From the NCBI GenBank assembly GCA_020832905.1, contig JAJHRG010000001.1, positions 360,617-424,616 on the forward strand: 64,000 nucleotides of DNA, given 5' to 3'. Origin of the DNA: Thermoproteota archaeon (GTDB lineage Archaea; Thermoproteota; Methanomethylicia; Methanomethylicales; Methanomethylicaceae). A program made the position numbers and the translations under genes. Positions 17,072 through 54,776 of this stretch are shown here, in pieces; the first letter of the stretch is position 1; each line of letters starts with the position of its first letter. The notes under the pieces were generated by a model that saw nothing but the letters and a program-made list of their open reading frames with translations, did no database searches and had not been told where the DNA came from.

Positions 17072-18441
17072 GCATAGAGTATAGAACTATACAGAAAATA
17101 AGTGGTCCTTTAATATTTGTAGAAGGAGTATCTGGAGTAGGATATAATGAACTTGTAGAAATAAGAGATCCAGAAGGAAATTTAAGAAGAGGAAGAGTTC
17201 TTGAAATTAATAGAAATATTGCAGTAGTTGAAGTTTTTGAAGGAACAACTGGTCTATCTATTACATCATCAACTGTAAGATTTCTTGGTAAGCCTTTAAC
17301 AATACCCCTATCAACTGAAATGCTTGGTAGAGTTTTCAATGGACTTGGAGAACCAATAGATGGTGGTCCTCCTCCATTTACAGAGGAATATAGAGATGTA
17401 AATGGATTACCAATGAATCCATATGCAAGAGATTATCCTACAAAGTTTATACAAACAGGTATATCTGCTATTGATGGAATGAATACATTAGTAAGAGGAC
17501 AGAAATTACCAATTTTTTCAGGATCTGGTTTACCTCATAATTTACTTGCAACACAAATAGCAAGACAAGCTACAATAGTTGGTGAAGAAGAAGGATTTGC
17601 TGTTATATTTGTAGCTATGGGTATAAAACATGATGAAGCTGAATTCTTTAAGAAAAGCTTTGAAGAATCTGGTGTATTAAAGAATTCAGCTTTATTTTTA
17701 AATTTAGCAGACGATCCTCCTGTAGAAAGATTAGTAGCACCAAGATGTGCTTTAACTTTAGCAGAATATTTAGCATTTGAACAAGATATGCATATATTAG
17801 TAATATTAACTGATATGACAAATTATGCTGAAGCATTACGTGAAATTAGTGCAGCAAGAGAAGAAGTTCCAAGTAGAAAGGGATATCCAGGTTATATGTA
17901 TAGTGATTTTGCATCTATTTATGAGCGTGCTGGAAGAATAAAGGGAAGAAAAGGAAGTATAACTCAAATGCCTATACTCACTATGCCAAATGATGATATA
18001 ACTCATCCAATTCCTGATCTTACTGGATATATAACAGAAGGGCAAATTGTACTTGATAGAGATTTACATAGACGTGGTATATATCCACCAATAAATGTTC
18101 TTCCAAGTCTTTCTAGATTAATGAAGGATGGAATAGGAAAAGGAAAAACAAGAGAAGATCATGGTCCAGTATCTAATCAGCTTTATGCTGCATATGCAAG
18201 AGCTCAAGAGTTAAGAATGTTAAGTACTATAATTGGAGAAGAAGGATTAACTGATAGAGATAGATTATATTTAAAATTTGGAGAATTATTTGAAAGAAGA
18301 TTTATAAATCAAGGTGTAAATGAGAATAGAAGTTTAGAGACTACACTAGATATTGCATGGGATTTACTTTCAATATTTCCAGAAAGTGAACTTACAAGAA
18401 TTCCAGATTACATAATAAGAAAGTACTATAAGAGGAAGTAA
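17068..18441 (+). CDS. atpB: A-type ATP synthase subunit B
   Basis: 457 aa. Strongly conserved AtpB sequence, for example [26 protein letters not shown]. Confidence 0.95.
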
Positions 18442-18444
18442 GCC

Positions 18445-19074
18445 TTGTCCTTAAAAGTTATACCATCTAAGATAAACTTAATTCGTTTTAGAAGAACTCT
18501 TAATTTTTTGATTAGAGTCCATGATCTTCTTGAAGATAAAAAAGAAATTTTACTTTTAGAAATAAGTAGAAGATATAATGAAACAATAAGATTAAGAAAA
18601 GAAGTTAATGAAATGCTGAAAAATGCATATGAATTTTTAAATAAAGCTAATGTAATAATGGGTAATAAAAAAATAGAAATGATTGAACCAATAAGTGAAT
18701 ATAAAATTGAAATTAAAAAAAGAAAAATTATGGGGATTTCCATACCTGCTATTTCTTTTTCTAAAGAGAAAAAGCCTATTTCCTATGGAATTTCTCAACC
18801 TACTGTACTACTAGATAATTTCATTGAAATTTTTGATAAATGTATTCCAATGTTATTAAGATTAGCAGAAATGGAAATGATTTTAATAAAGCTATTAGAA
18901 GAAGTTAAAAATACTCAAAAAAGAATAAATGCATTAGAATATGTTTTAATTCCTCGATATAAAAGCTTAATAGCATTTATATCATCTGTTTTAGAGGAAA
19001 GTGAAAGAGAAGAATTTGTAAGAATTAAAAAACTTAAAAGTATTTGGATGAAAAGGAGGGTAGTACATGAGTGA
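18445..19074 (+). CDS. atpD: A-type ATP synthase subunit D (central stalk)
   Basis: 209 aa, TTG start. Coiled-coil N and C termini and a conserved ALEYVLIPRY-type motif. Confidence 0.8.
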   Translation: MSLKVIPSKINLIRFRRTLNFLIRVHDLLEDKKEILLLEISRRYNETIRLRKEVNEMLKNAYEFLNKANVIMGNKKIEMIEPISEYKIEIKKRKIMGISIPAISFSKEKKPISYGISQPTVLLDNFIEIFDKCIPMLLRLAEMEMILIKLLEEVKNTQKRINALEYVLIPRYKSLIAFISSVLEESEREEFVRIKKLKSIWMKRRVVHE

Positions 19075-19207
19075 AGAGGAATTAAAAATAAAAGAAATTT
19101 ATGAAATGAAGAAAATTGAAATAAAAAAGCAAATTGAAGATGTTATTGATAAAATATCAAAAGAAATTGAAATGAAAAAAGAAGAAATATATAAAAGGGT
19201 TTTATAA
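19067..19207 (+). CDS. possible small, highly charged coiled-coil protein (46 aa), a stalk-like ORF not in the track
   Basis: Manual translation MSEEELKIKEIYEMKKIEIKKQIEDVIDKISKEIEMKKEEIYKRVL. Its start overlaps the atpD stop. Could be an AT-rich artefact. Confidence 0.2.
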   Translation: MSEEELKIKEIYEMKKIEIKKQIEDVIDKISKEIEMKKEEIYKRVL

Positions 19208-19227
19208 GTAAATTTTAATAAAAATAA

Positions 19228-19602
<375 letters not shown>

Positions 19603-19609
19603 TGATTAG

Positions 19610-21502
19610 GTGTACTTAATGTTCCGTCCAGAAAGAATATCAAAAACTTCTCTAATTTTTTTTAAATCTGATGTAGAAGAAGTTCTTAAAATATTAAGTA
19701 AACATGAAGCTTTTCATATAATTATAAAAGAAAATAATATAGAATCTAGAGATATAAATAAATTAAAATTATTAATTGAAAAAATAGATGATATAATAAA
19801 AAGAATAAAAAATATTTCTGGCGAAGTAGAAATAGAATCTCATTATCAAATTCTAGAATCAAAAGATATAACATCTTTAATTTCTAGTATAGAAAATGAA
19901 GTAATTAATTATGAGAATAAGGTAAAGGAACTTGAACAAATACTAAACTTAGAAAATTCACTTAGCTTTATTATTTCACTTTGGAGACCTATTGCTATTA
20001 AATTAAAGGAAATATTTCCAATTAAATTTTACTCAAAGTATTTCTCATTTATTGTTTTATATCAAAAAGAATATCGTCCTATAATACCTAATATTCCTCT
20101 TCCAAATATCATTATTAATATATCACAAAATCCTAACATAATATTATCGATTTGTTTTAAAAATGATGAATATAATATTAAAAAATATCTTGAAGAAGCA
20201 GGTTATGTAGAAATACCTAAGTTTAACAATATGCCAAAAGATATATTTGAAGTAAATGAAGTAATCAAACTTCTAGAAGATAAAATTAATGAAGTAACTA
20301 AAATAAAAAATGAGCTAATTTCTGATATTCCTAAAGTATTATCAAAATTATTCTACTTCAAATTAATTTTATCTGATATTCTTTCCATTGTTAATATTAA
20401 GGAAAGTTATTCTTTTGGAAGAAATTTAGTTATGATGGAAGGTTATGTTCCAACAAGAAATATTGATTTATTACTTAAAGATTTAAGAGAAAAATTAAAT
20501 GGTAGAATAATTGTAAATTATGTAGAAGAACATTCATCAAAAGATGTTCCTGTTATATTTAGATATCCTAAATTTATTTCATTATTTGAAAAAATAACAT
20601 GTTTATATGGTACTCCTTCATATAATGAAATAAATCCAACACCAATTTTAGCCATGACATTTCCCTTATTTTTTGGACTTATGTTTGGAGATATTGGACA
20701 TGGTATTATGTTATCACTTTTAGGATTATTTTTATATAAATATACAAAATCATTATCAAGAATTGGAATTTATCTTTCTATATGTGGTATATTTTCTGCT
20801 ATTATTGGTGGTTTTCTATATGGTGAAGCATTTGGTAAGCATATTTTCCATGGAATATTTTCACCTACTGAAGATTTTATGTCATTACTTAAATTTTCAT
20901 TATATATAGGTGTAGCTCATATTTCAATTGGTATATCAGTACAAATAATTAATAATTTAATACAGAATAAGAAGGTTGATGCATTTTTATTAAATTTACC
21001 AAGACTTATATTGTATATTTGTTTTATATACTTAGTATTTGGTTTTGGTTTAAATATAATGAGGTGGTTAGAAGGACCTATTTTAATAATGATTATACCT
21101 ATGGTATTTATGATGATTGGAAAGCCTATATGGGCTCTTATATCTCATGGGAAAAAAGAATTTCTTTCAGTTTTTGGAGAAGTAGGATTTGAAACTATTG
21201 ATACAGTAATTCGTTTTATTTCAAATACTGTATCATACTTAAGAATATTTGCAATGGTAATGGCACATATTTATCTTACAAATGTATTCTATAGCTTATC
21301 ATATATTGCTGGAGAAGGAATAATTGGAAGTATATTCTCATGGTCAATGGCAATAATAGGAAATATATTTGTTGTACTTTTAGAATCAATTGTGGCAATA
21401 GCTCAAGATCTTAGGCTTCATTTCTATGAGTGGTTTAGTAAATTCTTTGAAAATAATGGAGTAAAATTCTCTCCATTTAAATTAACAATATTAGCTAAAT
21501 AA
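19610..21502 (+). CDS. atpI: A-type ATP synthase subunit I (a)
   Basis: 630 aa with a soluble N-terminal half and a polytopic C-terminal half that includes a conserved Arg-containing helix. Confidence 0.8.
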   Translation: MYLMFRPERISKTSLIFFKSDVEEVLKILSKHEAFHIIIKENNIESRDINKLKLLIEKIDDIIKRIKNISGEVEIESHYQILESKDITSLISSIENEVINYENKVKELEQILNLENSLSFIISLWRPIAIKLKEIFPIKFYSKYFSFIVLYQKEYRPIIPNIPLPNIIINISQNPNIILSICFKNDEYNIKKYLEEAGYVEIPKFNNMPKDIFEVNEVIKLLEDKINEVTKIKNELISDIPKVLSKLFYFKLILSDILSIVNIKESYSFGRNLVMMEGYVPTRNIDLLLKDLREKLNGRIIVNYVEEHSSKDVPVIFRYPKFISLFEKITCLYGTPSYNEINPTPILAMTFPLFFGLMFGDIGHGIMLSLLGLFLYKYTKSLSRIGIYLSICGIFSAIIGGFLYGEAFGKHIFHGIFSPTEDFMSLLKFSLYIGVAHISIGISVQIINNLIQNKKVDAFLLNLPRLILYICFIYLVFGFGLNIMRWLEGPILIMIIPMVFMMIGKPIWALISHGKKEFLSVFGEVGFETIDTVIRFISNTVSYLRIFAMVMAHIYLTNVFYSLSYIAGEGIIGSIFSWSMAIIGNIFVVLLESIVAIAQDLRLHFYEWFSKFFENNGVKFSPFKLTILAK

Positions 21503-22370
21503 TAAACTCTTGAACTATTGTACTTGGCGTAATTCCTCTTTCTATACTAATTGCAATTCTTATTATGTTCTTTATTTCAATTTTCTTCATTTCAATATAT
21601 GCAATAATCTCTCCTAATCCTACATAATCTTCATAATATATTTTTTTCAATATTGGTATTAGTTTTTTTTCAAAATCTCTTTCTATTGCTCTTTGATTAT
21701 CTTTATATTTCTCCATACCTAATATTGATAAAGCTTTATCAATATTTTCTTCTTTTAATGCCTCAAAAAGTATTTTTCTATCAATTTTTCCTCCTTCTAG
21801 TATTATTAAACTTGTTAAAATATCCTTTCTTATGTTATTCTTTATTCCTCTTATTATTGTTAATATGTTATATTCATCTATTTTTAATGAGATGTAATCT
21901 TTTATTTTATTATAAATATCATATTTTTTTGCTAATTTTATGAACTTCAAAATTCTATTTTTAGCTATAAATGATATAGTAACTCCTGGTACTTCATATT
22001 CAATAATTTTCTTAAATTCTTCATTAGGCTTTAATTCAATTATCTCACTTAATAAACCTTTTTTATATTTCTCTATAACTGTTTTAGCAATTTCTTCTTC
22101 TAATTCTTGCTTTAATAATTCTAATAAATCTTTATAATATGGTACAATTTTTATAAACTCATTTATTTCATTATAGAATAATTCTAATAGCTTTTCTTCT
22201 ATAATTTTTGAATCAGGTTTTACTTCAGTTAATTCTGGATATATACCTCTCAATTTACTTATTAATTCATTTAAATCTCTCGAAGAAGTAAGTTCAATTA
22301 ATTGTCTTTCACTAAGCATTCTACTTCTTTTTGCAGAAGCTTTAATAGCTGTATATACTACATCACTCAA
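21495..22370 (-). CDS. atpC: A-type ATP synthase subunit C (V-type d homolog)
   Basis: 291 aa. The N-terminal YTAIKASAKRSRMLSERQL pattern resembles AtpC. Lies next to atpH. Confidence 0.65.
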   Translation of the reverse strand: MSDVVYTAIKASAKRSRMLSERQLIELTSSRDLNELISKLRGIYPELTEVKPDSKIIEEKLLELFYNEINEFIKIVPYYKDLLELLKQELEEEIAKTVIEKYKKGLLSEIIELKPNEEFKKIIEYEVPGVTISFIAKNRILKFIKLAKKYDIYNKIKDYISLKIDEYNILTIIRGIKNNIRKDILTSLIILEGGKIDRKILFEALKEENIDKALSILGMEKYKDNQRAIERDFEKKLIPILKKIYYEDYVGLGEIIAYIEMKKIEIKNIIRIAISIERGITPSTIVQEFII

Positions 22371-34930: not shown

Positions 34931-35209
34931 TTATCCTCCTGCTACTGGAGGAAATATTGAAATACAATCTCCATCTTTTAGTTCTGTATTAAGTCCATTT
35001 AGTCCTCTTATATCTTTTCCATTTAACAAAATTTTTACCATATCTTTTAATCTTCCCCCTTCAAAAATTACATTTTCTAATACTGAACCAAATCTTTCTA
35101 ATAATAAATTTAGAATATCCTCTATAGTTGTTCCTTCACACTCTACCTCCATACTTGACATACCTAGTATTTCTCTTAGTATTGCAAAAAACTCTATTTT
35201 TATCTTCAA
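34931..35209 (-). CDS. MoaD/ThiS-like beta-grasp protein ending in Gly-Gly (SAMP or MoaD)
   Basis: 92 aa. The C-terminus ...ISIFPPVAGG is the diagnostic di-Gly tail of sulfur-carrier and ubiquitin-like modifiers. Confidence 0.7.
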   Translation of the reverse strand: MKIKIEFFAILREILGMSSMEVECEGTTIEDILNLLLERFGSVLENVIFEGGRLKDMVKILLNGKDIRGLNGLNTELKDGDCISIFPPVAGG

Positions 35210-35274: not shown

Positions 35275-37782
35275 ATGGGCGGTTACATGGGAAAAATACT
35301 AAGAGTTGATTTATCTTCAAAAGAAATTTCAATTGAAGAACTAAATATGGATATAGCATATCAATTTATTGGTGGAAGAGGATATGGTGCAAAAATATTA
35401 TTTGATGAACTTCCTGTAGGTATAGATCCTTTAGGTCCAAAAAATAAGTTAATATTTATGACAGGTCCTCTTACAGGTACACCTGCTCCTACTTCTGGTA
35501 GATATTCTGTATCTACAAAATCTCCTCTTACAGGTACAATATTTGATGCTAATAGTGGTGGATACTTTGGAGTTGAATTAAAAAGAGCTGGATTTGATGG
35601 AATTATAATAGAAGGTGTAAGTGATACTCCTGTATTTCTTTCTGTAATAAATGGAAAAGCAGAACTTCATGATGCATCTAATATTTGGGGCTTAGATGTA
35701 TTTGAAACAGAAGCTCGTCTTAAACAGATTATAGGTGAGCCATATGCTAGAGTTGCTTGTATTGGTCCTGCTGGAGAAAGACTTGTTAAAATAGCTGCTA
35801 TAATGAATGATAAACATAGAGCTGCAGCTAGAGGTGGTGTAGGTGCTGTTATGGGATCAAAAAAACTAAAAGCAATAATAGTTAAAGGATCAGCAGAAAT
35901 TCCTATTGCAAATCGTTATGCATTTATGAAAGAAGTAAAACGTTGTATGGATGTAATTAAAGGTCATCCAATTACTGGTGATGGCTTAGGAAGATATGGT
36001 ACTGCTATTTTAATTCATATAATTAATAAGGCTGGAATACTTCCAGTAAGAAATTATACATCAGGTTTTTTTGAAGAAGCTGAAAAAGTAAGTGGAGAAT
36101 ATATGGCAAAAACAATTTTAAAAGGGAAAAAAGGTTGTTTTGCATGTCCAATAATGTGTGGAAGAATTACAAATGTGAAATTACCTAATGGTAATATATT
36201 AGAAACAGAAGGACCAGAATATGAAACAATATGGGCTTTTGGTCCAAATTGTGGTATAAGTGATATTGAAGCTATAGCTATAGCTAATGATATGTGTAAT
36301 AGGTATGGAATAGATACAATATCAATGGGTCAAATAATTGCTTTTCTTATGGCATGTTATGAAAATGGTAAAATTGATGCTAGAAGTATAGGTTTTGAAC
36401 CAAAATTTGGTAGTATAGAGAGTTTATATAAATTAATAAAAATGACTGCTTTTAGAGAAGGTATTGGAAATATATTAGCTGAAGGTGTTAAAAGAGCTTC
36501 TGAAATACTTAATGCTGAAGATTATGCTTTTCATGTTAAAGGACTTGAACTTCCTGCATATGATCCAAGAGGAGCAAAAGGAATGGCTCTTGCTTATGCA
36601 ACTTCAAATAGAGGAGGATGTCACTTGAGAGCTTTTATGATTGCTCCTGAAATTTTAAGTATTCCAAGATATTTAAATCCAAATTCTTATGAAAATAAGG
36701 CATTACTTACAAAAATTATGCAAGATGTATTTGCAGTTATAGACTCTCTTATATTATGTAAGTATTCTACACTTGCATTATTTTCTACACTAAATTTTGA
36801 ACCTGATTTTTATGCAAGATTACTTACAACTGCTACAGGATTTTATGTTGATAGAGAAGAATTCTACAAAATTGGAGAAAGAATATACAATTTAGAAAGA
36901 CTTTTTAATGTTAGAGAAGGTTTTTCAAGAAAAGATGATACTTTACCTAAGAGATTATTAACTGAACCATTACCAGATGGTCCTGCAAAAGGAGAAACAA
37001 TTAATTTAGATAGACTACTAAATGAATATTATGCTATAAGAGGTTGGGATTATAATGGAATACCAACAGATAAGAAGGTGTTGGAATTGGGTCTAACCCC
37101 ACTTTATGATGGTCCAAAAGTTCAAGTAGCTATTGATGAAAGATATATGAAGGATGCATTACCTATTGCTGAAGCAGCATATCGTGGAGGAGCTGATATA
37201 ATAGAAGCAGGAACACCTTTAATTAAATCAGAAGGTCTAAGAGTAGTAAAAGAGTTTAGAAAATTATGTCCAAATGCTACAATTGTAGCAGATCTTAAAA
37301 CATTTGATACTGGATGGTTAGAAACAGAATTAGCTGCTGAAAATGGTGCAGATATAGTAACAGTAATGGGAGCAACAGATGATTATACAATAAAAGATGC
37401 AGTAGGTGCAGCTAGAAAGTATGGTCTTAAGGTAATGGTAGACTTAATGAATCTTAAAGATCCAATATCAAGAGCTATAGAAGTTGAAAAATTAGGTGTT
37501 GATATTGTTTGCTTACATGTTGGTATAAGTGCACAAATAAGAGAAAGAGAAGTAGATCAAAAAATTGCTATAGTAGAAAATCTTGTTAAATCAGTAAATA
37601 TACCAGTTGCAGTAGCTGGTGGAATAAAACTAGAAGTTGTACCATTATTAGTAAAAGCAGGTGCTAAAATAATTATAGTTGGTGGTGCTATTACAAAATC
37701 TGCAAATCCAGAAGAAGCTACAAGAAGATTTGTTACTACAGTAAGAAAATTATGGAGTGAATATAAGCAAAAAAGTAAATAA
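35275..37782 (+). CDS. fusion protein: tungsten-type aldehyde:ferredoxin oxidoreductase (AOR family) joined to 3-hexulose-6-phosphate synthase (HPS/HxlA, OMP-decarboxylase-like)
   Basis: 835 aa in one frame. Residues 1 to about 610 carry an AOR N-terminus (GKILRVDLSS), the Cys cluster CFACPIMC and a later GGCH. Residues about 615-835 align along their whole length with HPS (VQVAIDE..., EAGTPLIKSEGLRVVKEF, VADLKTFDTG, ADIVTVMGATDDYTIKDAV, VMVDLMNLKD, LGVDIVCLHVG, VAGGIKLEVVP, IVGGAITKS). Confidence 0.85.
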   Translation: MGGYMGKILRVDLSSKEISIEELNMDIAYQFIGGRGYGAKILFDELPVGIDPLGPKNKLIFMTGPLTGTPAPTSGRYSVSTKSPLTGTIFDANSGGYFGVELKRAGFDGIIIEGVSDTPVFLSVINGKAELHDASNIWGLDVFETEARLKQIIGEPYARVACIGPAGERLVKIAAIMNDKHRAAARGGVGAVMGSKKLKAIIVKGSAEIPIANRYAFMKEVKRCMDVIKGHPITGDGLGRYGTAILIHIINKAGILPVRNYTSGFFEEAEKVSGEYMAKTILKGKKGCFACPIMCGRITNVKLPNGNILETEGPEYETIWAFGPNCGISDIEAIAIANDMCNRYGIDTISMGQIIAFLMACYENGKIDARSIGFEPKFGSIESLYKLIKMTAFREGIGNILAEGVKRASEILNAEDYAFHVKGLELPAYDPRGAKGMALAYATSNRGGCHLRAFMIAPEILSIPRYLNPNSYENKALLTKIMQDVFAVIDSLILCKYSTLALFSTLNFEPDFYARLLTTATGFYVDREEFYKIGERIYNLERLFNVREGFSRKDDTLPKRLLTEPLPDGPAKGETINLDRLLNEYYAIRGWDYNGIPTDKKVLELGLTPLYDGPKVQVAIDERYMKDALPIAEAAYRGGADIIEAGTPLIKSEGLRVVKEFRKLCPNATIVADLKTFDTGWLETELAAENGADIVTVMGATDDYTIKDAVGAARKYGLKVMVDLMNLKDPISRAIEVEKLGVDIVCLHVGISAQIREREVDQKIAIVENLVKSVNIPVAVAGGIKLEVVPLLVKAGAKIIIVGGAITKSANPEEATRRFVTTVRKLWSEYKQKSK

Positions 37783-38310
37783 TTATCTTAATCTATTTCC
37801 TTTTGAATCCATAGTAATAAAACATGGCCCAAAATCTTCTACTTCTAAAACCCATACTGCTTCAGGATCTCCTAGATCTTTCCAATATACTTCCTTTATA
37901 CTTTTAATTCGTTTTGCTGCTAAAGCACCTGCTCCTCCTGGAAATTCCATATATACACAGTGATACTTTTTTAAAGCATTAAGTGTTTTCTCACCCATTC
38001 CTCCTTTTCCTATTATACCCTTTAATCCTGTAAATTTTATTAATTCCTCCTCTAATTCTTCCATTCTCATACTTGTTGTTGGACCAGCAGAAACAACTTT
38101 TAATCCTTTAAGCAAAGGACCACAATGATATATTATTTTATTTCTTAAATCAAATGGAAGTTCTTCACCTCTTCTTAAGAGTTCTACTGCTCTTAGATGT
38201 GCCATATCTCTCATAGTAAATAAAATACCAGAAAAATATACAATATCTCCTATATTTAATTTCTCAATTACTTCATCATTTAATATAGTACTTAACTTCC
38301 ATATCTTCAT
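37783..38310 (-). CDS. class I fumarate hydratase (or L-tartrate dehydratase) beta subunit
   Basis: 175 aa. C-terminal-domain pattern ...HCGPLLKG...KGGMGEKT... of two-subunit Fe-S hydro-lyases. The alpha subunit lies upstream. Confidence 0.85.
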   Translation of the reverse strand: MKIWKLSTILNDEVIEKLNIGDIVYFSGILFTMRDMAHLRAVELLRRGEELPFDLRNKIIYHCGPLLKGLKVVSAGPTTSMRMEELEEELIKFTGLKGIIGKGGMGEKTLNALKKYHCVYMEFPGGAGALAAKRIKSIKEVYWKDLGDPEAVWVLEVEDFGPCFITMDSKGNRLR

Positions 38311-38314
38311 ATTT

Positions 38315-39163
38315 TCACCTAGTTATCTTTACTTCTTTTCCATCATATATAATAGAGATTCTTCTTAATGCCCAACATTGAATATTTATACATAATGGAA
38401 GACTTGCTGTATGACAATGTGCCCATTCTATTGCTACATTAATTACTGTAGTTTTTCCACCAAAACCCATAGGTCCTATTCCTAAACTATTTATTTCTTC
38501 TTCTAATTCTTCTTCTAATTTTCTTACAAACTCATAAGGACTTCTTTGATTAATAGGTCTTAAAAGAGCATATTTTGATAAATGTACAGCTAATTCCATA
38601 TTTCCTCCTACTCCAATACCTACAATTATTGGTGGACATGGCTTACCATTTGCTTTTCTTATAGTATCAATTACAGCTTCTTTTATTCCTTTAATTCCTT
38701 TTACTGGATCTAACATGTAAATACAACTAACATTTTCTGAACCAGCACCTTTTGCTAAGATATCAATTCTCATAAAGTCATTATCTTCATATTCAAAATG
38801 AATTATTGGATGAAATCTTCCTAAGTTTTCTCCTTGATTTTCTCTTGTAAAAGGATTTACTGTATTTGCTCTTATAGGTACTTCTTTTACTGCTCTTTTT
38901 ATAGCTTCTTCTATTATCTTCTTAATCTCTTTAAATCCTTTTGAACCTTTTACAAAAAATTCAATAATTCCTGTATCTTGGCATATTGGTACTTTTTCTT
39001 CTCTAGCATATCTTATATTCTCTATTATAGAATCAATAACAATTCTACTTAAACCTTCTTCTTTTTCTCTTATTTCTAGTAACTTTTTTTCTACATCTTC
39101 TGGTAAATCACATTCTAATTTTCTTATTGCCTCAACAATAATATCAGCATTTATATTACTCAT
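38315..39163 (-). CDS. class I fumarate hydratase (or L-tartrate dehydratase) alpha subunit
   Basis: Fe-S hydro-lyase alpha domain with the cluster cysteines (CQDTG, CHT..). Start moved to the internal Met (MSNINADIIVEAI). The track's 24-aa N-terminal extension is low-complexity and would overlap the neighbouring gene. Confidence 0.75.
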   Translation of the reverse strand: MSNINADIIVEAIRKLECDLPEDVEKKLLEIREKEEGLSRIVIDSIIENIRYAREEKVPICQDTGIIEFFVKGSKGFKEIKKIIEEAIKRAVKEVPIRANTVNPFTRENQGENLGRFHPIIHFEYEDNDFMRIDILAKGAGSENVSCIYMLDPVKGIKGIKEAVIDTIRKANGKPCPPIIVGIGVGGNMELAVHLSKYALLRPINQRSPYEFVRKLEEELEEEINSLGIGPMGFGGKTTVINVAIEWAHCHTASLPLCINIQCWALRRISIIYDGKEVKITR

Positions 39164-39214
39164 AAAAGAAAAAAATCCAAAAAGTATTAATAAATCACAC
39201 TTTCTTTCTTTATT

Positions 39215-39628
39215 ATGCATAATAATTATGATCAATTAATAAAATTCTCTTATGAAATATCACAATTAGTTAAATATATTTATTTTAATAATCTAGCAAG
39301 AGCTGAAGAAGAATTAATACAATTAAAAAACAAACTAGAGAAATTTGGAGAAATGGGAAATGGCTTCTTTAATGCTATAAAGGGTATATATATTGCTATG
39401 AAGGAAAAAGACAAAATTGCTTTTTTTACAAGAATTTATCAATATGAAACTCCAGAGAAAATTAGAGAAATTGCTAATAATTTTAAAAATGAAATGTTTA
39501 GACCAACTATTGATGATTATGAAAGAGGTTTTCTTTTATGTTGGGAAATTATTTTAAGAACTTTATCTGAGCTCAAAGAGAAATATCCAGAATATGTAAA
39601 AGGAAATACAGAACTTACATCCAAATAA
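39215..39628 (+). CDS. hypothetical protein
   Basis: 137 aa, non-repetitive composition, no recognised motif. Confidence 0.4.
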   Translation: MHNNYDQLIKFSYEISQLVKYIYFNNLARAEEELIQLKNKLEKFGEMGNGFFNAIKGIYIAMKEKDKIAFFTRIYQYETPEKIREIANNFKNEMFRPTIDDYERGFLLCWEIILRTLSELKEKYPEYVKGNTELTSK

Positions 39629-39920
39629 TATTATAAGTAATAACCCAAATTACATACCAAATTAGAAAATATGAAAAAATTCCTGTTGTATATAGTTTTC
39701 TATAATCTTTTACACGAGAATATATCCCTTTAATTACATATCTAAATAGAATATAACTCAAAAGAAAGAATGATACTCCTACTATCAAGCCAATTCCTTC
39801 TTTTAAATTTAATATTCCACATAATAATCCAGCAATTATTGCAAATATTATTCTTATATAGTAAATTTTTCTGTAAATAGAATAATGTGTAGGTGTTGAA
39901 TTTGAAGTCTTGTTTATCAT
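39615..39920 (-). CDS. small hydrophobic membrane protein (about 3 TM helices)
   Basis: 101 aa with three hydrophobic helices. Its start overlaps the TTG start of the divergent NFACT gene by 28 nt, so one of the two starts may be wrong. Confidence 0.3.
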   Translation of the reverse strand: MINKTSNSTPTHYSIYRKIYYIRIIFAIIAGLLCGILNLKEGIGLIVGVSFFLLSYILFRYVIKGIYSRVKDYRKLYTTGIFSYFLIWYVIWVITYNIIWM

Positions 39921-41927: not shown

Positions 41928-42476
41928 ATGACAAAAATAAGAAATCTACTTGTAGAAGATGTAATGCGTAGAGATGTAGTAACATTACCTGAAGATGTTA
42001 ATATAAGAAAAGTTGCTATGGAAATGAGTGAAAAAGGTGTAGGATCTGTAGTTATAACACATAATAATAATCCAGTTGGTATAATAACTGAAAGAGATTT
42101 AGTTACTAGGGTAATTGCAAAAGGTCTAGATCCTGAAAAAACATTAGCAAAAGAGATAATGTCATCACCATTATTTGTTATAAGTCCAAAAGCTGAAATT
42201 ATGGAAGCAGCAAAAAAGATGTCTTCTTTAAATATTCGTAGATTAATTGTTATTAAAGATGGAAAAATGATTGGAATTATAACATCAAGAGATATACTAA
42301 ACGTAGCACCAGAACTTATTGAAATACTAATAGAAGCAACAAAAAATAGATTACTTGTAAGTTCAGAAGAAGAAATGGTAGGATATTGTGATAATTGTGA
42401 AGAATGGTCAGATTCACTTAAGGAAGTTAATGGTCAGTTTTTATGTGAAGATTGTCGTTTAGAATTTAGTCATTAA
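41928..42476 (+). CDS. CBS-domain pair protein with a C-terminal Cys4 Zn ribbon
   Basis: 182 aa. Two CBS motifs (VVTLPED...GVGSVVI, ...IRRLIVI..GKMIGIIT) and CDNCEEW...CEDC. Confidence 0.75.
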   Translation: MTKIRNLLVEDVMRRDVVTLPEDVNIRKVAMEMSEKGVGSVVITHNNNPVGIITERDLVTRVIAKGLDPEKTLAKEIMSSPLFVISPKAEIMEAAKKMSSLNIRRLIVIKDGKMIGIITSRDILNVAPELIEILIEATKNRLLVSSEEEMVGYCDNCEEWSDSLKEVNGQFLCEDCRLEFSH

Positions 42477-42483
42477 CAATTAG

Positions 42484-43326
42484 GTGGAAAAAATGAGTGT
42501 AAGTGATTTTATGTCATCACCTGTTATTGTTGTAAATCCAAATGATAACTTAGCTTATGTAAGAAATTTAATGCTAAAAAAAGGAGTGAGTAGATTAGTT
42601 GTTATTGAGAAAAATCATCCAGTAGGTATAATAACAAGAAGAGATATTATTAGAAAGCTTAGAAGTTATGATTTTCAGCAAAGAGATTTTGATTCAATAT
42701 TAGTATCAGAAATAATGCGTAGTCCTGTAGTAACAATAAATGAGAACTCATCAATTATTGAAGCTGCTAAAAAAATGATTAATGAAAATATTAGAGGTAT
42801 ACCTGTAGTAAATGATAAGGGAGAACTGGTTGGTATAATTACAAAAACTGATATAACAAGATATTTTGCTAAAAATTTTGAATCTAAATATGATGTAAAA
42901 TCAGTTTGTCAAACTAATAATATTCCTATAGTAGGTAGACATCATAGTGTATATAGAGTAATTGATATACTAGAAAAATATAATAATGATAGAGTTATAG
43001 TTGTTGATGGTGGAAAACCAGTAGGAATAATTACTGAAACAGATTTATCATTTGTTACACTTCCAAAGAAAGTTGAAAGTTTTATTAAAAGAATTAGAAA
43101 AGAGTATGGTGAAGTTTCTTATGAACGTATTTACTTAATACCTGTTGCTGAAGATATTATGACACCAGATCCAATAACAATAAAAGAAAGTGAAGATGCT
43201 AGTTTAGCAGCAAGAATGTTAATTGAGTATAATATTGGTGGAATGCCAGTAGTAAATAATGATGATAAATTAACTGGTCTAATTACAAAAGTCGATTTTA
43301 TTAAAATATTAGCAAAAGGTACGTAG
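42484..43326 (+). CDS. CBS-domain protein (four CBS motifs)
   Basis: 280 aa with repeated h-h-V-x(n)-G-h-h-T/S-x-x-D CBS signatures. Confidence 0.75.
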   Translation: MEKMSVSDFMSSPVIVVNPNDNLAYVRNLMLKKGVSRLVVIEKNHPVGIITRRDIIRKLRSYDFQQRDFDSILVSEIMRSPVVTINENSSIIEAAKKMINENIRGIPVVNDKGELVGIITKTDITRYFAKNFESKYDVKSVCQTNNIPIVGRHHSVYRVIDILEKYNNDRVIVVDGGKPVGIITETDLSFVTLPKKVESFIKRIRKEYGEVSYERIYLIPVAEDIMTPDPITIKESEDASLAARMLIEYNIGGMPVVNNDDKLTGLITKVDFIKILAKGT

Positions 43327-43327
43327 T

Positions 43328-44134
43328 ATGAAAATAACAGATATTTTAGTAAAGAATCCTCCTATGCTAAGTAAGAATAGACCTATAACTGATACGTTAG
43401 AAATTTTAAGAAAAGAACCAGTAGATAGTGTATGTATTTATGATGAAAATGAAAAACTCATTGGTACAATTAGCTATAGAGATATTTTAAGTAGAATTGG
43501 TATAGAAAAAGTAAGAAGAATATCTCCAGAATCTCTTTACAATTCAGGATTTGTTAGAGAGTTTCCTACTCATATATCATATGAGTGTTCTATTAGAAAA
43601 TGTGCAGAATTAATGTTAGAATTTAATGTAAATTCTTTTCCTCTTTTCTATGGTGAAACTTTTCTTGGTATGATTTATAGAAGAGATATGATAAAATTTC
43701 TTGAGAATTCTTCTACTACTATAGATTTAATAATGAATAAAAATCCACTAGTGATATATCCACATAATAGAGTAATACATGCAAGAAGAATAATGCTAGA
43801 TTATAATCTTTCTTTTTTACCAGTTTTAAATGATGAAGGTAGAATTTTAGGTGTAATAACTGAAGGAGAAGTTGTTAATACTTTAATAGAATTTTATAGA
43901 AAAACATCAGAAAAACATCAAAAAGCTAAAATAAAAGAAATATTAGTAACAACATCAATGATTGTAGACATTCCTATTGTAGAAAAGAATATCTCTATTT
44001 CTGATATTGCAATAGACATCAGAAGAAAAGGTTTACCAGGAGTTATTGTAACTGAAAATAAAAAGATTATAGGAATTGTTACTCATAATGAAATAATAAA
44101 ATATATAGCTCATAGCTTTCCAGAGGGAATATAA
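43328..44134 (+). CDS. CBS-domain protein
   Basis: 268 aa with multiple CBS-like repeats, contiguous with the two upstream CBS genes. Confidence 0.65.
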   Translation: MKITDILVKNPPMLSKNRPITDTLEILRKEPVDSVCIYDENEKLIGTISYRDILSRIGIEKVRRISPESLYNSGFVREFPTHISYECSIRKCAELMLEFNVNSFPLFYGETFLGMIYRRDMIKFLENSSTTIDLIMNKNPLVIYPHNRVIHARRIMLDYNLSFLPVLNDEGRILGVITEGEVVNTLIEFYRKTSEKHQKAKIKEILVTTSMIVDIPIVEKNISISDIAIDIRRKGLPGVIVTENKKIIGIVTHNEIIKYIAHSFPEGI

Positions 44135-51251: not shown

Positions 51252-51992
51252 ATGATATCTATATTCACAAGCTTTGGTACATTAAAAGTAAATAATGATT
51301 TATCATTATTTATTAATAATAAAAAATTAACACCACAATTTAGAACTCTAAATGATATTTTTCCAGTTCTTTACACTACAGAAGATATAGAAATTTCAAA
51401 GGATACACCATTATATGCAATGTATAGAGGAGTATATAATGAGAAAGATGAAAGAATTTTCTTACAAAGAAAAATAAGATTTGATATTACTATAATGTCA
51501 AATATAACTATAGGAAGAGAATGGAACAAAACATTAGGTCATTATCATCCTATTGCTGAAAATAATCTTTCATATCCAGAATTATATCAAGTACTATATG
51601 GAAAAGCTACTTTTCTTCTTCAAAAAAAGGTAAATGATGAAATTATAGATTTTGTAATTGCAGAAGTAAAAGAAGGTGAAGCTTTTCTTATCCCTCCTAA
51701 CTATGGTCATGTTACTATCAATTCTGGTAATAAAATACTTGTAATGGCAAATTTAGTATCTAGTAATTTTCAATCTTTATATGAAGAATATATAAGACAT
51801 AAGGGAGCTGCATATTATTTACTTGTAGATGGCTCTCTTATACCAAATCCAAATTATAAAAAAATAGTAAGACCAAGATTTTCAAATAAGAGATTTCCTA
51901 TATCAAAAGATATTTACTCAGATTTTCTATCATGTCCATCTTGTTTTAATTTTCTTAATAAACCTTCATTAATATCTGATTTCTCTTTATGA
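51252..51992 (+). CDS. cupin-type glucose-6-phosphate isomerase (cPGI)-like protein
   Basis: 246 aa. The segment TLGHYHPIAE...ELYQVLYGKATFLLQ...IPPNYGHVTINSG parallels the Pyrococcus cPGI metal site (TKGHFH...E...PPYWAHRTVN). Lies immediately upstream of pgk and gap. Confidence 0.65.
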   Translation: MISIFTSFGTLKVNNDLSLFINNKKLTPQFRTLNDIFPVLYTTEDIEISKDTPLYAMYRGVYNEKDERIFLQRKIRFDITIMSNITIGREWNKTLGHYHPIAENNLSYPELYQVLYGKATFLLQKKVNDEIIDFVIAEVKEGEAFLIPPNYGHVTINSGNKILVMANLVSSNFQSLYEEYIRHKGAAYYLLVDGSLIPNPNYKKIVRPRFSNKRFPISKDIYSDFLSCPSCFNFLNKPSLISDFSL

Positions 51993-52052
51993 TTTTTTAA
52001 ATTTTTATATACCTTCTACTATTTTCCTTATTGTACGTAAATAGGTGATTAA

Positions 52053-53291
52053 ATGAAGTTTGGATTTTATACTATGGACGACTTTGACTTTAATGGAAAG
52101 AGAGTTCTTCTAAGAATTGATATTAACTCACCAATTGATCCTAATACAAATGAAATACTTGATGATTTTCGTATAAGATATCATGTACCTACAATACTAG
52201 AACTATTAGATAGGGGAGCATCTGTAACTATTTTAGCTCATCAAGGTCGTCCTGGTGATAATGATTTTACAACTTTAAGTAATCATGCAAAACTTTTATC
52301 TCATTACTTAAATAGAGAAGTAAAATATATAGAAGATATCTTTGGTCCTACAGCAAGATCATCAATATTATCATCAAAACCAGGAGATGTAATATTATTA
52401 GAAAATGTTAGATTTTACTCTGAAGAAGTAATTGAAAAAATACCTGAAGCTCAATCAAAAACATTTCTTGTACGCTTTCTTGCACCACTTTTTTCAATCT
52501 ACATAAATGATGCTTTTGCTACTTCACATAGATCTCATCCATCTCTTACTGGCTTCCCTATGGTTTTACCATCATGTGGAGGTAGATTATTAGAAAAAGA
52601 AGTAGAATCATTAAACTTAATAATGGAAGATTCCTTAAGACCAAGTGTATTTATACTTGGAGGTGGAAAAGTCTCAGATTCTTTACAATTAATAGAAGCT
52701 CTTCTTCAAAGAAATATTGCTGATAAGGTACTTTTAACAGGCTTAGTTTCTCATTTATTTATGATTGCAAAGGGTTTAAATCTCAATAGAGAAACTTTAC
52801 GAGTACTTGAGGGAAAAGGAATATATTCTCTTTTGCCAAGAGCACAACGTTTAGTTCAATCTTTTCCAGATAGAATAGTAGTACCTATTGATTCTGCTTT
52901 ACTTAAAAATGGTAATCGAGTAGAAGTTAGTAATGAAAACATACCTAATTTCTCTCCAATATATGATATTGGAGAGAATACTATTAAATTATATTCTGAA
53001 ATTATAAAAGATGCAAAAATAATTGTAGTAAGAGGACCTGCTGGCTATATAGAAGATGAAAGATTTAGTAAAGGAAGTGAAAATCTCTTAAAATGTATTG
53101 TAAATAGTAAAGGAAAGAAAATATTGGGAGGAGGACACTTAAGAAGGATAGCAGAAAAACTAAAAGTTATTGATAAAATTGATTACTTTAGTACAGGTGG
53201 TGGAGCATTTATTGCATTTTTATCAGGTGAAAAATTACCTGCAATTGAGGCTCTTATTATTTCTGCTAAAAAATTTAAACCTAATAAATAA
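52053..53291 (+). CDS. pgk: phosphoglycerate kinase
   Basis: 412 aa. N-terminal FNGKRVLLRIDINSP, with conserved hinge and C-terminal nucleotide domain. Confidence 0.9.
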   Translation: MKFGFYTMDDFDFNGKRVLLRIDINSPIDPNTNEILDDFRIRYHVPTILELLDRGASVTILAHQGRPGDNDFTTLSNHAKLLSHYLNREVKYIEDIFGPTARSSILSSKPGDVILLENVRFYSEEVIEKIPEAQSKTFLVRFLAPLFSIYINDAFATSHRSHPSLTGFPMVLPSCGGRLLEKEVESLNLIMEDSLRPSVFILGGGKVSDSLQLIEALLQRNIADKVLLTGLVSHLFMIAKGLNLNRETLRVLEGKGIYSLLPRAQRLVQSFPDRIVVPIDSALLKNGNRVEVSNENIPNFSPIYDIGENTIKLYSEIIKDAKIIVVRGPAGYIEDERFSKGSENLLKCIVNSKGKKILGGGHLRRIAEKLKVIDKIDYFSTGGGAFIAFLSGEKLPAIEALIISAKKFKPNK

Positions 53292-53302
53292 GAATAAATA
53301 AG

Positions 53303-54343
53303 GTGAGAATATTGGTAGTTAGAGTTGGAATAAATGGATATGGAACTATTGGTAAAAGAGTTGCTGATGCTATATTAAAGCAAAAAGACATGGAATTAGT
53401 AGGAGTTACAAAAACAAAACCAAATTTTGAGTGTAAAATAGCTATAGAAAAAGGCATACCTATTTTTGCTTCTTCTCCTGATAGAATTAAATTATTTGAA
53501 GAAGCAGGTATAAAGGTTAATGGAACATTAGAAGATTTACTTAGAAACTGTGATGTAATTATAGATTGTACACCAGGAGGTATTGGTGCATCATATAAAC
53601 CAATTTATGAAAAATATAATGTAAAGGCAATATTTCAGGGAGGAGAAAAACATGATGTTGCAGGATTTTCTTTTAATGCATATTGTAATTATAAAGAAGC
53701 AATTGGAAGGAAATATGTTAGAGTAGTTTCATGTAATACAACTGCTCTTTGTAGATTATTATATGCAATAGATAATGCATTTGGAATTAAAAAAGCAAGA
53801 GTAGTTTTAATTAGAAGAGGAGCAGATCCTCATGAAGATTCAAAAGGTCCAATAAATAGCATTGTTCCTGATCCAGTTTCCATTCCTTCTCATCATGGAC
53901 CAGATTTAAACAAAGTTCTTCCACATATTAATATTACTACAATAGCATTTGCTGTACCAGAAACACTTATGCATGTTCATGTTGTAAATTTAGAACTAAA
54001 TAATTCAGTAACAGAATCTGATGTAATAAATGTGCTATCAAAATACTCAAGAATAAAAATAGTTTCTGCAAAATTAGGATTAGATTCTACTTCAGCTATA
54101 ATTGAATATGCTAGAGATTTAGGAAGAAAACGCTATGATATACCTGAATTAATAATTTGGAAAGAATCTATAAAGTCTTATGGAAATGAAATATATCTTT
54201 CTCAAGCTGTACATCAAGAATCCATAGTAGTACCTGAAAATATTGATGCAATAAGAGCAATGATGAAAATAACAGAAAATCCTGAAGAATCCATAAGATT
54301 AACTGATGAATCACTAGGTATAGGAGGTGATTTTAATATTTAA
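53303..54343 (+). CDS. gap: glyceraldehyde-3-phosphate dehydrogenase, archaeal type II
   Basis: 346 aa with VGINGYGTIGKRVADAI and the catalytic VVSCNTT. GTG start. Confidence 0.9.
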   Translation: MRILVVRVGINGYGTIGKRVADAILKQKDMELVGVTKTKPNFECKIAIEKGIPIFASSPDRIKLFEEAGIKVNGTLEDLLRNCDVIIDCTPGGIGASYKPIYEKYNVKAIFQGGEKHDVAGFSFNAYCNYKEAIGRKYVRVVSCNTTALCRLLYAIDNAFGIKKARVVLIRRGADPHEDSKGPINSIVPDPVSIPSHHGPDLNKVLPHINITTIAFAVPETLMHVHVVNLELNNSVTESDVINVLSKYSRIKIVSAKLGLDSTSAIIEYARDLGRKRYDIPELIIWKESIKSYGNEIYLSQAVHQESIVVPENIDAIRAMMKITENPEESIRLTDESLGIGGDFNI

Positions 54344-54755
54344 GAATATACTTGTACCAATAGATAGCTCACCTGCTTCTCTAAGAGCTTTAGATTTAGC
54401 AATAGAATTTGCCATGAGAGATGGTGCAAAAATAACCCTAATCTATGTTATTCTTTCATCTTCTAAATTAAATGCTCAAACAATTGATGAACTTAAAAAA
54501 TTAGGTGAAAATGTTCTTCATGAAGCAGAAGAAAAATGTAAAAAACATGGTATTATTCCTAAAAAAGTTCTTAGGATTGGAGAGTTAGATCAGTCTTCTA
54601 TAGCTTTAGAAATTTATGATGAAGTATTAAAAGGAAAGTATGATCTTGTTATTCTTGGTACTAAAGGATACTGTGGAGAGAAAGCTATACTTATGGGAAG
54701 TATTGCTATTGCTTTAGCAATTACTCTTCCATGTACTGTAATAATTGTTCGTTAA
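54327..54755 (+). CDS. universal stress protein (UspA family)
   Basis: 142 aa with ILVPIDSS...LVILGTKGY...G. Confidence 0.75.
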   Translation: MILIFKNILVPIDSSPASLRALDLAIEFAMRDGAKITLIYVILSSSKLNAQTIDELKKLGENVLHEAEEKCKKHGIIPKKVLRIGELDQSSIALEIYDEVLKGKYDLVILGTKGYCGEKAILMGSIAIALAITLPCTVIIVR

Positions 54756-54776
54756 TTTTTCATTTGGTGTTTTAAT

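Follow-up and report, generated by a model that had tools for sequence, protein, structure and literature searches.

In the archaeal reverse ribulose-monophosphate (RuMP) route, one formaldehyde is freed per pentose made. Two fusion proteins of this route offer the closest described parallels to the gene reported here. [quoted passage not shown] In the HPS-PHI protein of Thermococcales (NF041755; PDB 9LJ9-type), which serves the same pathway from fructose-6-phosphate to ribulose-5-phosphate, HPS is N-terminal and joined to the preceding pathway enzyme, PHI, and formaldehyde is freed. Outside the Fae methanogens, the fate of this formaldehyde has so far only been guessed, with two genome papers proposing 'an AOR', namely separate aldehyde:ferredoxin oxidoreductase (AOR) enzymes that would take up the formaldehyde of the RuMP pathway, for Brockarchaeota and Culexarchaeia (PMC8065059, PMC9723716). 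AOR-clade enzymes do oxidise formaldehyde, which is among the many aldehydes used by Aromatoleum aromaticum AorABC (8C0Z), a multi-subunit, NAD-linked bacterial complex without an HPS domain (PMC6365974).

We analysed a window of 64 kb (the whole stretch of archaeal DNA under study, 64,000 nucleotides) that holds an AOR and an HPS in one reading frame. All coordinates below refer to this window.

35275 to 37782, plus strand: complete AOR-HPS fusion gene, a single open reading frame (ORF) with an ATG start, 835 aa plus stop

The ORF listing of the window gives no internal stops in this frame, and a Pfam search of the protein places an OMPdecase/HUMPS match (aa 614-819, 2e-35) behind the AFOR_N and AFOR_C domains, so the uninterrupted 835-aa frame reported in the preliminary description stands. 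All the motifs quoted there are present in the translation (VQVAIDE, EAGTPLIKSEGLRVVKEF, VADLKTFDTG, ATDDYTIKDAV, LGVDIVCLHVG, AGGIKLE and IVGGAITKS), the CxxCxxxC corresponding to C288/C291/C295. The same product, 100% identical over 835 aa, occurs on contigs from JGI 3300045883, SRR10916987 and SRR25522540, that is, in at least three independent assemblies. The architecture recurs in more than 80 full-length homologues (more than 80 clusters at 90% identity) from several archaeal lineages, spanning 43-97% identity. The proposed check for a frameshift or assembly error thus revealed no artefact, the proposed search of other genomes found the fusion in many of them, and the gene is confirmed as a real, widely conserved archaeal AOR-HPS fusion. 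The family is nonetheless narrow: when clustered at 50% identity, it amounts to two full-length representatives and two fragments among ~3,900 HPS-like representatives. Full-text literature searches returned no description of an AOR-HPS fusion, in line with the earlier suggestion that the architecture is undescribed, and a look into a systematic archaeal fusion survey found HPS-PHI alone listed. We know of no other tungstoenzyme fused to a sugar-phosphate aldolase, and this one could become a useful structural example.

The N-terminal ~610 residues form the AOR half, which comprises the following features.

35290 to 35889, plus strand: AOR N-terminal domain, the pterin-binding base domain (aa 6-205; PF02730 AFOR_N, 2e-84), whose alignment with 1AOR and 9MQX starts at residue 1-2
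35935 to 37095, plus strand: AOR domains 2 and 3 (aa 221-607; PF01314 AFOR_C, 1.7e-150)
36136 to 36159, plus strand: CxxCxxxC iron-sulfur motif (aa 288-295), aligned to C288/C291/C295 of 1AOR and present in 75/75 fusions

Both AFOR domains are full length, with Pfam scores of 282.7 bits for PF02730 (profile positions 1-198 of 199) and 501.9 bits for PF01314 (positions 3-385 of 385). The [4Fe-4S] ligands C288, C291, C295 and C495 align with C288, C291, C295 and C494 of 1AOR, the catalytic E317 and H450 with E313 and H448, and the pterin-binding D347 and D490 with D343 and D489; none of these residues varies in the 75 fusions aligned. The AOR N-terminus and cluster cysteines noted earlier are genuine, and no cluster or catalytic residue is missing from the half; the catalytic Y316 is Phe in 9 of the 75. 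The position of 1AOR D338 is Asn in the fusion, as it is in the solved AOR 9MQX. The position of 1AOR E332, which we take to be a ligand of the inter-subunit iron site, is Ile in the structure-sequence alignment, so that this iron site would be unconserved in the fusion.

Subfamily scores place the half close to the solved AORs sensu stricto, with full-length alignments of 628 bits to 9MQX, 615 bits to the Pyrococcus furiosus enzyme 1AOR and 589 bits to 9G7J. These enzymes have the cluster cysteines, the Glu313/His448 equivalents and the pterin-binding Asp motifs in common with the fusion, which differs in its C-terminal HPS and in a private six-residue insertion after the fourth cysteine. Aromatoleum AorABC (8C0Z) scores 516 bits, and other subfamilies score lower (WOR5, 244; BamB, 201; GAPOR model, 52). 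P. furiosus formaldehyde:ferredoxin oxidoreductase (FOR, 1B25) shares family and fold with the half, but it belongs to a more distant subfamily and the fusion lies outside the FOR clade. At 387 bits, FOR falls ~230 bits below AOR sensu stricto (615-628 bits to 1AOR and 9MQX), which rules out the FOR-type identity put forward in the preliminary description. Judged by sequence similarity, the N-terminal half is an AOR sensu stricto, and it probably carries a tungsten (or molybdenum) bis-pyranopterin. Its placement in the broad-specificity AOR clade, not in a formaldehyde-specialised one, counts against the reading that we favour below.

The C-terminal half begins directly after a short linker.

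37114 to 37779, plus strand: HPS domain (aa 614-835; TIGR03128 and PDB HPS matches), with residues D621, E644, D673, K675, D678, H748 and D723/I751/A781

This half scores 201.6 bits against TIGR03128 (HxlA) within the full protein and 205.8 bits on its own, above the curated NCBIfam equivalog-domain cutoff of 200 bits. Its closest solved HPS relative is 9LJ9 (209 bits), followed by the Mycobacterium gastri enzyme 3AJX (133 bits), and it matches the HPS part of the Fae-HPS model NF009833 at 165-167 bits. The Mg2+/catalytic residues D11, E33, D62, K64, D67 and H136 of 3-keto-L-gulonate-6-phosphate decarboxylase (KGPDC) correspond to D621, E644, D673, K675, D678 and H748, and the HPS catalytic residues are unvaried in 74-75 of the 75 fusions. 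KGPDC positions E112, R139 and T169, whose replacement by D, V/I/L and A presumably tells HPS from KGPDC (as in the KGPDC-to-HPS engineering work), are occupied by D723, I751 and A781 in all 75; 3AJX and two KGPDC mutants with HPS-like character, 1XBX and 1XBY, align with the same pattern. A KGPDC (UlaD/SgbH) identity is ruled out by scores of 88-110 bits against NCBIfam cutoffs of 250-294, by PDB matches to KGPDC of only ~80 bits and by the difference at all three positions. Orotidine monophosphate decarboxylase (OMPDC) is likewise ruled out, its models scoring 45-51 bits versus 106-110 for KGPDC models and 201.6-205.8 for TIGR03128. The half thus groups with HPS and not with KGPDC or OMPDC, as first described. 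A tree of this half sets it firmly among HPS sequences and is poorly resolved, a point against the reading that we favour below; its 212 columns are too few to settle the monophyly of the fused HPS domains. To our knowledge, the HPS reaction is the only one in this branch of the suprafamily that releases an aldehyde.

The AOR-half tree gathers the fused proteins into one clade (99 of 100 neighbour-joining bootstraps) nested among unfused archaeal AORs, and the fusion has a single origin. Its sister, the closest unfused AOR, is encoded beside POR, ACS and a ferredoxin, with no HPS among its neighbours. Conversely, no closely related AOR lies beside an unfused HPS at any of the ~70 such loci. 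A conserved fusion of single origin is direct Rosetta-stone evidence for a link between HPS and AOR, located in one defined protein.

We favour, at a probability of roughly 60%, the reading that the protein is a bifunctional enzyme acting in the reverse RuMP route of archaea and oxidising its formaldehyde by-product to formate. A separately encoded PHI would make D-arabino-3-hexulose-6-phosphate from fructose-6-phosphate, and the C-terminal HPS module would split it into ribulose-5-phosphate and formaldehyde. The N-terminal AOR module, with its putative tungsto- or molybdo-bis-pyranopterin and [4Fe-4S] cluster, would then convert formaldehyde to formate and pass two electrons to ferredoxin. 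The fusion would hold free formaldehyde low and draw the otherwise unfavourable cleavage forward. Substrate identity, reaction direction, metal, the use of ferredoxin as acceptor and any physical channelling are inferred. The logic is that accepted for Fae-HPS, but the HPS partner here is a redox enzyme of ~610 aa (W/Mo-pterin and [4Fe-4S]) that would oxidise formaldehyde with ferredoxin instead of condensing it with H4MPT; the route would be independent of H4MPT and would gain reducing equivalents. In HPS-PHI, HPS is joined to the preceding enzyme, whereas here it is C-terminal, joined to an enzyme that would consume its by-product, and PHI is a separate gene where present. If true, the reading would provide a physiological substrate for one AOR clade, in a family with largely unclear roles in vivo. 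AOR-HPS could also serve synthetic C1 metabolism as a compact module for handling formaldehyde.

The gene immediately upstream is transcribed divergently from the fusion.

34931 to 35209, minus strand: MoaD/SAMP1-like small sulfur-carrier protein with a C-terminal GG (ThiS Pfam, 3.5e-18)

It also scores 92.4 bits against TIGR01687 moaD_arch (cutoff 49.5) and 79.9 bits against the SAMP1 model (cutoff 60), so the MoaD-like GG protein of the first account is upheld. A MoaD-like gene adjoins the fusion at other loci as well (L005, L006, L010-L013, L016 and L017), an adjacency that extends across phyla. MoaD-like genes are recorded companions of AOR operons, that of Aromatoleum AorABC with aorD/aorE included (PMC6365974), which supports the earlier proposal of a link to pterin-cofactor biosynthesis; the neighbour most likely serves pterin-cofactor maturation.

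PHI or PHI-like genes adjoin the fusion in two other lineages. At locus L008, a true PHI lies 2.5 kb downstream (TIGR03127, 184.6 bits; cutoff 160), and the Hodarchaeota locus L017 adds to the fusion and its MoaD neighbour a second HPS, an ATP-PFK and a PHI-like gene with two SIS domains. By tblastn and a 114-sequence HMM, the 64-kb window contains no PHI and neither do 12 of the ~14 fusion loci, which counts against our preferred reading; the best 120 matches of a PHI profile protein search include none labelled Methanomethylicia.

The junction between the two halves and an insertion specific to the fused clade bear on whether the modules work together.

36781 to 36798, plus strand: six-residue insertion FSTLNF (aa 503-508) directly after the fourth cluster cysteine, in 81/81 fused-clade sequences
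37096 to 37113, plus strand: short linker, constant in length (aa 608-613, part of TPLYDGPK), with a PLYxGPK or EPRWPK motif across the main clade

In the alignment, the linker is constant in length and conserved in motif across the main clade, and AlphaFold2 (AF2) gives it a pLDDT of ~90. The AF2 model of all 835 residues has a mean pLDDT of 92.5 and a pTM of 0.90 and predicts the fusion to be one rigid unit. The insertion is strongly conserved (F503 100%, T505 95% and L506 93% of the 81 fused-clade sequences) and is absent from 40 of 40 unfused relatives and from 1AOR. The whole-chain pTM of 0.90 suggests a defined interface between the domains, one maintained despite deep divergence (43-97% identity); with the fixed linker and the private insertion, it lends indirect support to possible substrate channelling. 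These features weigh against the view that the two activities are independent, the fusion giving co-expression and stoichiometry only. On that view, formaldehyde would be free to diffuse, and the AOR would retain a general task, either detoxifying aldehydes or interconverting acids and aldehydes. The nearest relatives of the AOR half are indeed broad-substrate enzymes, and many Rosetta-stone fusions have no channelling; yet a linker so constant in length and sequence, an insertion that adjoins the cluster and pterin region, and the whole-chain pTM make such independence unlikely.

The reaction might instead run in the assimilatory direction. Reduced low-potential ferredoxin would drive formate to formaldehyde at the AOR module, and the fused HPS would trap formaldehyde on ribulose-5-phosphate as hexulose-6-phosphate, so that formaldehyde would never leave the protein before condensation. 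No sequence feature fixes the direction. Enzymes of the AOR family can run in both directions and, given a strong reductant, reduce carboxylic acids. The HPS equilibrium lies on the condensation side, whereby the fusion would draw formate reduction, itself unfavourable, along. The window also contains a membrane-bound Mrp/Mbh-type [NiFe] hydrogenase cluster (large subunit at 11948-13117), which, being ferredoxin-linked, could supply reduced ferredoxin from H2. The preliminary description had connected this hydrogenase, ~20 kb upstream, to formaldehyde oxidation: its presence there is confirmed, but the ferredoxin link to the fusion is generic, because any reduced ferredoxin could feed the hydrogenase and the biosynthetic pentose flux is small. 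Against formate assimilation, the formate/formaldehyde couple is about as negative as ferredoxin or more so, archaeal HPS is well supported in pentose synthesis by cleavage (Fae-HPS being read likewise), and none of the fusion loci inspected shows a neighbouring gene for formate transport or for formate dehydrogenase. We consider this direction quite improbable. If true, it would represent a natural 'reductive formate to RuMP' carbon entry in anaerobic archaea and would imply that a tungstoenzyme has an internal tunnel for an aldehyde, of which we know no report.

Less probable still is a defence against exogenous formaldehyde, which would be fixed on ribulose-5-phosphate when pentose phosphate is available, the excess being oxidised to formate. 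Each module would then consume formaldehyde in its thermodynamically favoured direction, and detoxification is a recognised function of the RuMP pathway (PMC8065059). A rigid fusion, however, brings two competing sinks no obvious gain; the hosts are anaerobic archaea without evident formaldehyde-generating methylotrophy, and the fusion gene is set among housekeeping genes, not stress genes. We regard this reading as very unlikely next to cleavage coupled to formaldehyde oxidation.

An assembly, frameshift or gene-calling error merging two adjacent genes has a negligible probability: some GenBank MAG records show only a 231-234-aa 'DUF561' protein here (P0121, P0122), but in one of them (locus L005, 2207..4696) the DNA encodes the fusion as an unbroken ORF of 829 aa, a single 650,731-bp contig yields 831 aa in the JGI call versus 234 aa in the NCBI call, and the identical ORFs and divergent full-length fusions described above argue likewise. 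The natural split that these short proteins might suggest is ruled out by the intact ORF of L005, and the 'DUF561' records are annotation truncations. Public database names for the family are inconsistent and include AOR, HPS, OMP decarboxylase and truncated DUF561; both enzymes may therefore be miscounted when metabolism is reconstructed for Methanomethylicia, Nezhaarchaeales, Bathyarchaeia, Hadarchaeota, Thermoplasmata and Hodarchaeales.

The fusion occupies one uninterrupted ORF (35275-37782, + strand) that begins with ATG and encodes 835 aa, in a window whose G+C content stays near 28% throughout. [quoted passage not shown]

Residues 6-205, AFOR_N (E 2e-84)
Residues 221-607, AFOR_C (E 1.7e-150)
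Residues 614-819, OMPdecase/HUMPS (E 2e-35)

NCBIfam identifies the third domain as HPS. The HPS model TIGR03128 (curated cutoff 200) scores 201.6 bits within the fusion and 205.8 bits for the isolated half, versus 106-110 bits for 3-keto-L-gulonate-6-P decarboxylase (KGPDC) models and 45-51 bits for OMP decarboxylase (OMPDC), and the KGPDC and OMPDC identities were rejected. The closest structure to this half is a 426-aa HPS (9LJ9, 209 bits), followed by Mycobacterium gastri HPS (3AJX, 133 bits) and KGPDC (about 80 bits). The common Mg2+/catalytic set is complete (D621, E644, D673, K675, D678, H748). KGPDC residues E112/R139/T169, which from KGPDC engineering work we take to be the positions separating the two enzymes, are replaced in HPS fashion by Asp, Ile, and Ala, and the structure alignment shows the R139V change that separates 1XBX from 1XBY. 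In a tree of this half, all fused domains fall within genuine HPS, far from KGPDC, at a resolution too poor to test their monophyly. As had been proposed, the C-terminal half belongs by sequence to HPS; it is not a KGPDC.

The N-terminal half aligns end-to-end with AOR sensu stricto among the solved structures compared, scoring 628 bits against 9MQX (AOR), 615 against 1AOR (Pyrococcus furiosus AOR), 589 against 9G7J (AOR), and 516 against 8C0Z (Aromatoleum AOR), versus 387 bits for 1B25, the P. furiosus formaldehyde:ferredoxin oxidoreductase (FOR), and 244 bits for WOR5. On these scores, this half belongs to the AOR sensu stricto lineage of the AOR family and not to FOR; the FOR-type assignment made earlier was wrong. 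The cluster ligands C288/C291/C295/C494 of 1AOR correspond to C288/C291/C295/C495 of the fusion and Tyr312/Glu313/His448 to Y316/E317/H450, and the pterin-binding aspartates are kept. Across an alignment of 75 full-length fusions, every residue named above for either half is invariant or nearly so, which argues that both modules are under purifying selection as active enzymes.

To our knowledge, this branch of the OMPDC suprafamily has a single reaction that makes or uses an aldehyde, that of HPS, and the aldehyde is formaldehyde. The best-supported reading, with a probability of about 0.6, is that the fusion would combine cleavage of hexulose-6-P, fed by 6-phospho-3-hexuloisomerase (PHI), with formaldehyde oxidation to formate and reduction of ferredoxin. 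A separately encoded PHI would convert fructose-6-P to hexulose-6-P, which the HPS module would split into ribulose-5-P and formaldehyde; the AOR module would then oxidize formaldehyde to formate, with ferredoxin taking up the electrons in the final step. Formaldehyde oxidation lies at about -0.5 V and is favorable with ferredoxin. It would pull the cleavage reaction, as is thought for Fae in the Fae-HPS fusion of methanogens. Lineages without the tetrahydromethanopterin C1 branch include the methyl-reducing Methanomethylicia, and we infer that the AOR-HPS version suits such lineages; speculatively, the formate might serve formate-dependent purine synthesis (PurT/PurP). These predicted catalytic assignments draw on homology, conservation, and context. 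The pathway logic of the preliminary description, with HPS-derived formaldehyde going to a ferredoxin-linked oxidoreductase, holds up. Formaldehyde is among the aldehydes oxidized by AOR-clade enzymes, and the Aromatoleum enzyme reaches 4.1 U/mg (PMC6365974).

Other modes of action can be envisaged for the same pair of modules. Independent activities that are merely co-expressed seem unlikely. A reverse, assimilatory run, from formate through formaldehyde to hexulose-6-P, appears less probable again, and a dual formaldehyde sink is improbable.

That the fusion is an artefact is close to inconceivable. An identical 835-aa product is encoded, among the same neighbor genes, on contigs of three independent datasets (JGI 3300045883, 256 kb; SRR10916987; SRR25522540), and among 5.8 billion proteins searched, more than 80 clusters (90% identity; 807-859 aa) combine AFOR_N, AFOR_C, and OMPdecase domains and are 43-97% identical to the query; an assembly error or frameshift is thereby excluded. 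In favor of an artefact, several GenBank records of metagenome-assembled genomes (MAGs; P0121/P0122/P0258/P0268) annotate only the last 231-240 aa at this position, 231-234 aa in two of them, as a 'DUF561 domain-containing protein' beginning at an internal GTG (V602 in the window's fusion). However, the DNA of one such record (GCA_029887765.1, locus L005, 2207-4696) holds an intact 829-aa ORF, and a 650,731-bp contig carries a JGI call of 831 aa versus an NCBI call of 234 aa. The short proteins are annotation truncations. Family members are already public under single-function names, used inconsistently (aldehyde ferredoxin oxidoreductase, 3-hexulose-6-phosphate synthase, orotidine 5'-phosphate decarboxylase, DUF561), none of which states a bifunctional protein.

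The fusion is present in several archaeal lineages. Labeled MAG sources in the protein search comprise Methanomethylicaceae/Verstraetearchaeota, Nezhaarchaeales, Thermoprotei, Thermoplasmata, Hodarchaeales/Heimdallarchaeota, and Hadarchaeota. A junction-spanning profile run on one GTDB genome per species, whose counts are lower bounds, located it in at least Methanomethylicales, 'Nitrososphaerota'/Thermoprotei, Bathyarchaeia, Hodarchaeota, and an unclassified 'uncultured archaeon' bin. One Nezhaarchaeales representative (L082) has an unfused HPS (49% identity) with no AOR within 10 kb, while other Nezhaarchaeales have the fusion, so the HPS type differs inside the order.

Neighbor joining of the AOR half (121 sequences over 591 columns, 1AOR root) gathers all fused proteins, contig-truncated fragments included, in one clade (bootstrap 99/100) nested among unfused archaeal AORs, which points to a single origin. 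The clade carries a private six-residue insertion (aa 503-508, FSTLNF; F503 100%, T505 95%, L506 93%) starting eight residues past the fourth cluster cysteine and found in none of 40 unfused relatives or 1AOR. The linker from the AOR C-terminal 'LGL' to the HPS start 'P-K-[LIV]-Q-V-A-[LIV]-D' is constant in length at 6-8 residues, with conserved motifs (PLYxGPK in Methanomethylicia and Nezhaarchaeales, EPRWPK in others); the junction is longer in a divergent Hadarchaeota-like subclade (P0082-P0118). AlphaFold2, given an alignment of 48 sequences, modeled the whole chain with a mean pLDDT of 92.5 (~90 in the linker) and a pTM of 0.90, which argues for a fixed interdomain arrangement.

A recurrent AOR-HPS'-HPS variant (P0058, 1004 aa; P0269, 992 aa; loci L018 356-3325, L021 4393-7362, L032 443-3394) has a further, degenerate HPS-like half-domain inserted after AOR and ahead of the intact HPS; this additional copy lacks the Asp of 'QVALD', the catalytic His, and the AGG motif. 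Of these three loci, L018 (Aenigmatarchaeota) and L032 (Nanohalarchaeota) come from bins labeled as DPANN, possibly through mis-binning. In a 968-aa protein of the representative library (P0271), a SIS domain comes after three OMPdecase/HPS-like stretches, so that the architecture is HPSx3-PHI-like.

AOR-HPS joins Fae-HPS and HPS-PHI as a bifunctional fusion, extending a known design principle rather than adding a new kind of system. Fae-HPS, to which it is likened in function, has the same domain order, its C-terminal HPS likewise following the consumer; in AOR-HPS the partner is a redox enzyme. HPS-PHI, unlike AOR-HPS, joins HPS to the preceding pathway step. We know of no other fusion of an AOR-family protein to a non-redox metabolic enzyme. 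In the full-text literature searched, which takes in few of the subscription journals, no description of AOR-HPS was found, and HPS-PHI is the only such fusion that a systematic survey of fused archaeal proteins reports in its text and supplements. That a separate AOR oxidizes formaldehyde derived from the ribulose monophosphate pathway has been published as an idea for Brockarchaeota (PMC8065059) and Culexarchaeia (PMC9723716). As a Rosetta-stone link the fusion is clean, conserved, and apparently undescribed, and it makes an old question, the fate of formaldehyde from archaeal pentose synthesis, directly testable.

The genomic context of the fusion includes the following features:

4649-14412 (+), complete Mrp/Mbh-type membrane-bound energy-converting [NiFe] hydrogenase cluster (MnhE/G/MbhD, Oxidored_q2, Proton_antipo_M, MnhB, two polyferredoxins, small subunit, NADHdh, Ehbp)
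11948-13117, hydrogenase large subunit
14418-22370, A-type ATP synthase operon, directly after the hydrogenase
34931-35209 (-), MoaD-like gene
37783-38310 (-), class-I fumarate hydratase, beta
38315-39235 (-), class-I fumarate hydratase, alpha

The MoaD-like gene (archaeal MoaD model 92.4 bits, cutoff 49.5; SAMP1 model 79.9, cutoff 60) diverges from the fusion across an AT-rich 65-bp spacer. It lies upstream and divergent in L005, L006 (Nezhaarchaeales), and L010-L013, and downstream on the same strand in L016 and L017 (in L017 the ORFs overlap); the adjacency is conserved over deep divergence. The cofactor role first suggested for this gene holds up and gains support from the Aromatoleum aor operon, whose companions MoaD-like aorD and aorE have a presumed role in W-cofactor maturation (PMC6365974). 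The fumarase pair is convergent with the fusion, zero bases separating the fusion's TAA from the opposite-strand ORF, an arrangement kept in L005. The other neighbors have housekeeping functions (SAM synthetase, Sm, Alba).

Neither tblastn nor HMM searches recovered a PHI from the window, and most fusion loci likewise gave none. L008 encodes a true PHI (TIGR03127 184.6 bits, cutoff 160) 2.5 kb downstream of the fusion on the same strand. A Hodarchaeota MAG (DZ1M.117, L017 1178-6853) has a compact cluster in which a second HPS comes after the fusion and MoaD-like ORF; this HPS is of the Fae-HPS type but lacks Fae (PRK13307, 147 bits). Converging on these genes are an ATP-dependent phosphofructokinase and a PHI-like gene of 380 aa with two SIS domains in tandem, which TIGR03127 matches in two stretches at 143 bits, under its cutoff. 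The nearest unfused AOR (P0102) neighbors a second AOR, ferredoxin, POR, and acyl-CoA synthetase, a 2-oxoacid fermentation context, and none of the ~70 unfused HPS loci listed has a closely related AOR beside it. The hydrogenase mentioned in the preliminary description is present and is a plausible but wholly generic ferredoxin sink or source.

Further downstream, some 14 kb from the fusion, a sugar-phosphate cluster (51252-59751) comprises a cupin-type glucose-6-P isomerase (51252-51992), PGK, GAPDH, a universal stress protein, a phosphoglucomutase/phosphomannomutase, and a pfkB-family kinase, with no PHI in its Pfam annotation. A 101-aa protein (~39615-39920, -; 14341-14646 in L001, the same region) matches EMC6 (PF07019, ER membrane protein complex subunit 6 family), as does, weakly, a protein in L005. 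Downstream of an NFACT-family gene of the ribosome quality-control type, three successive genes (41928-44134, +; 182, 280, and 268 aa) have Pfam matches to CBS domains only.
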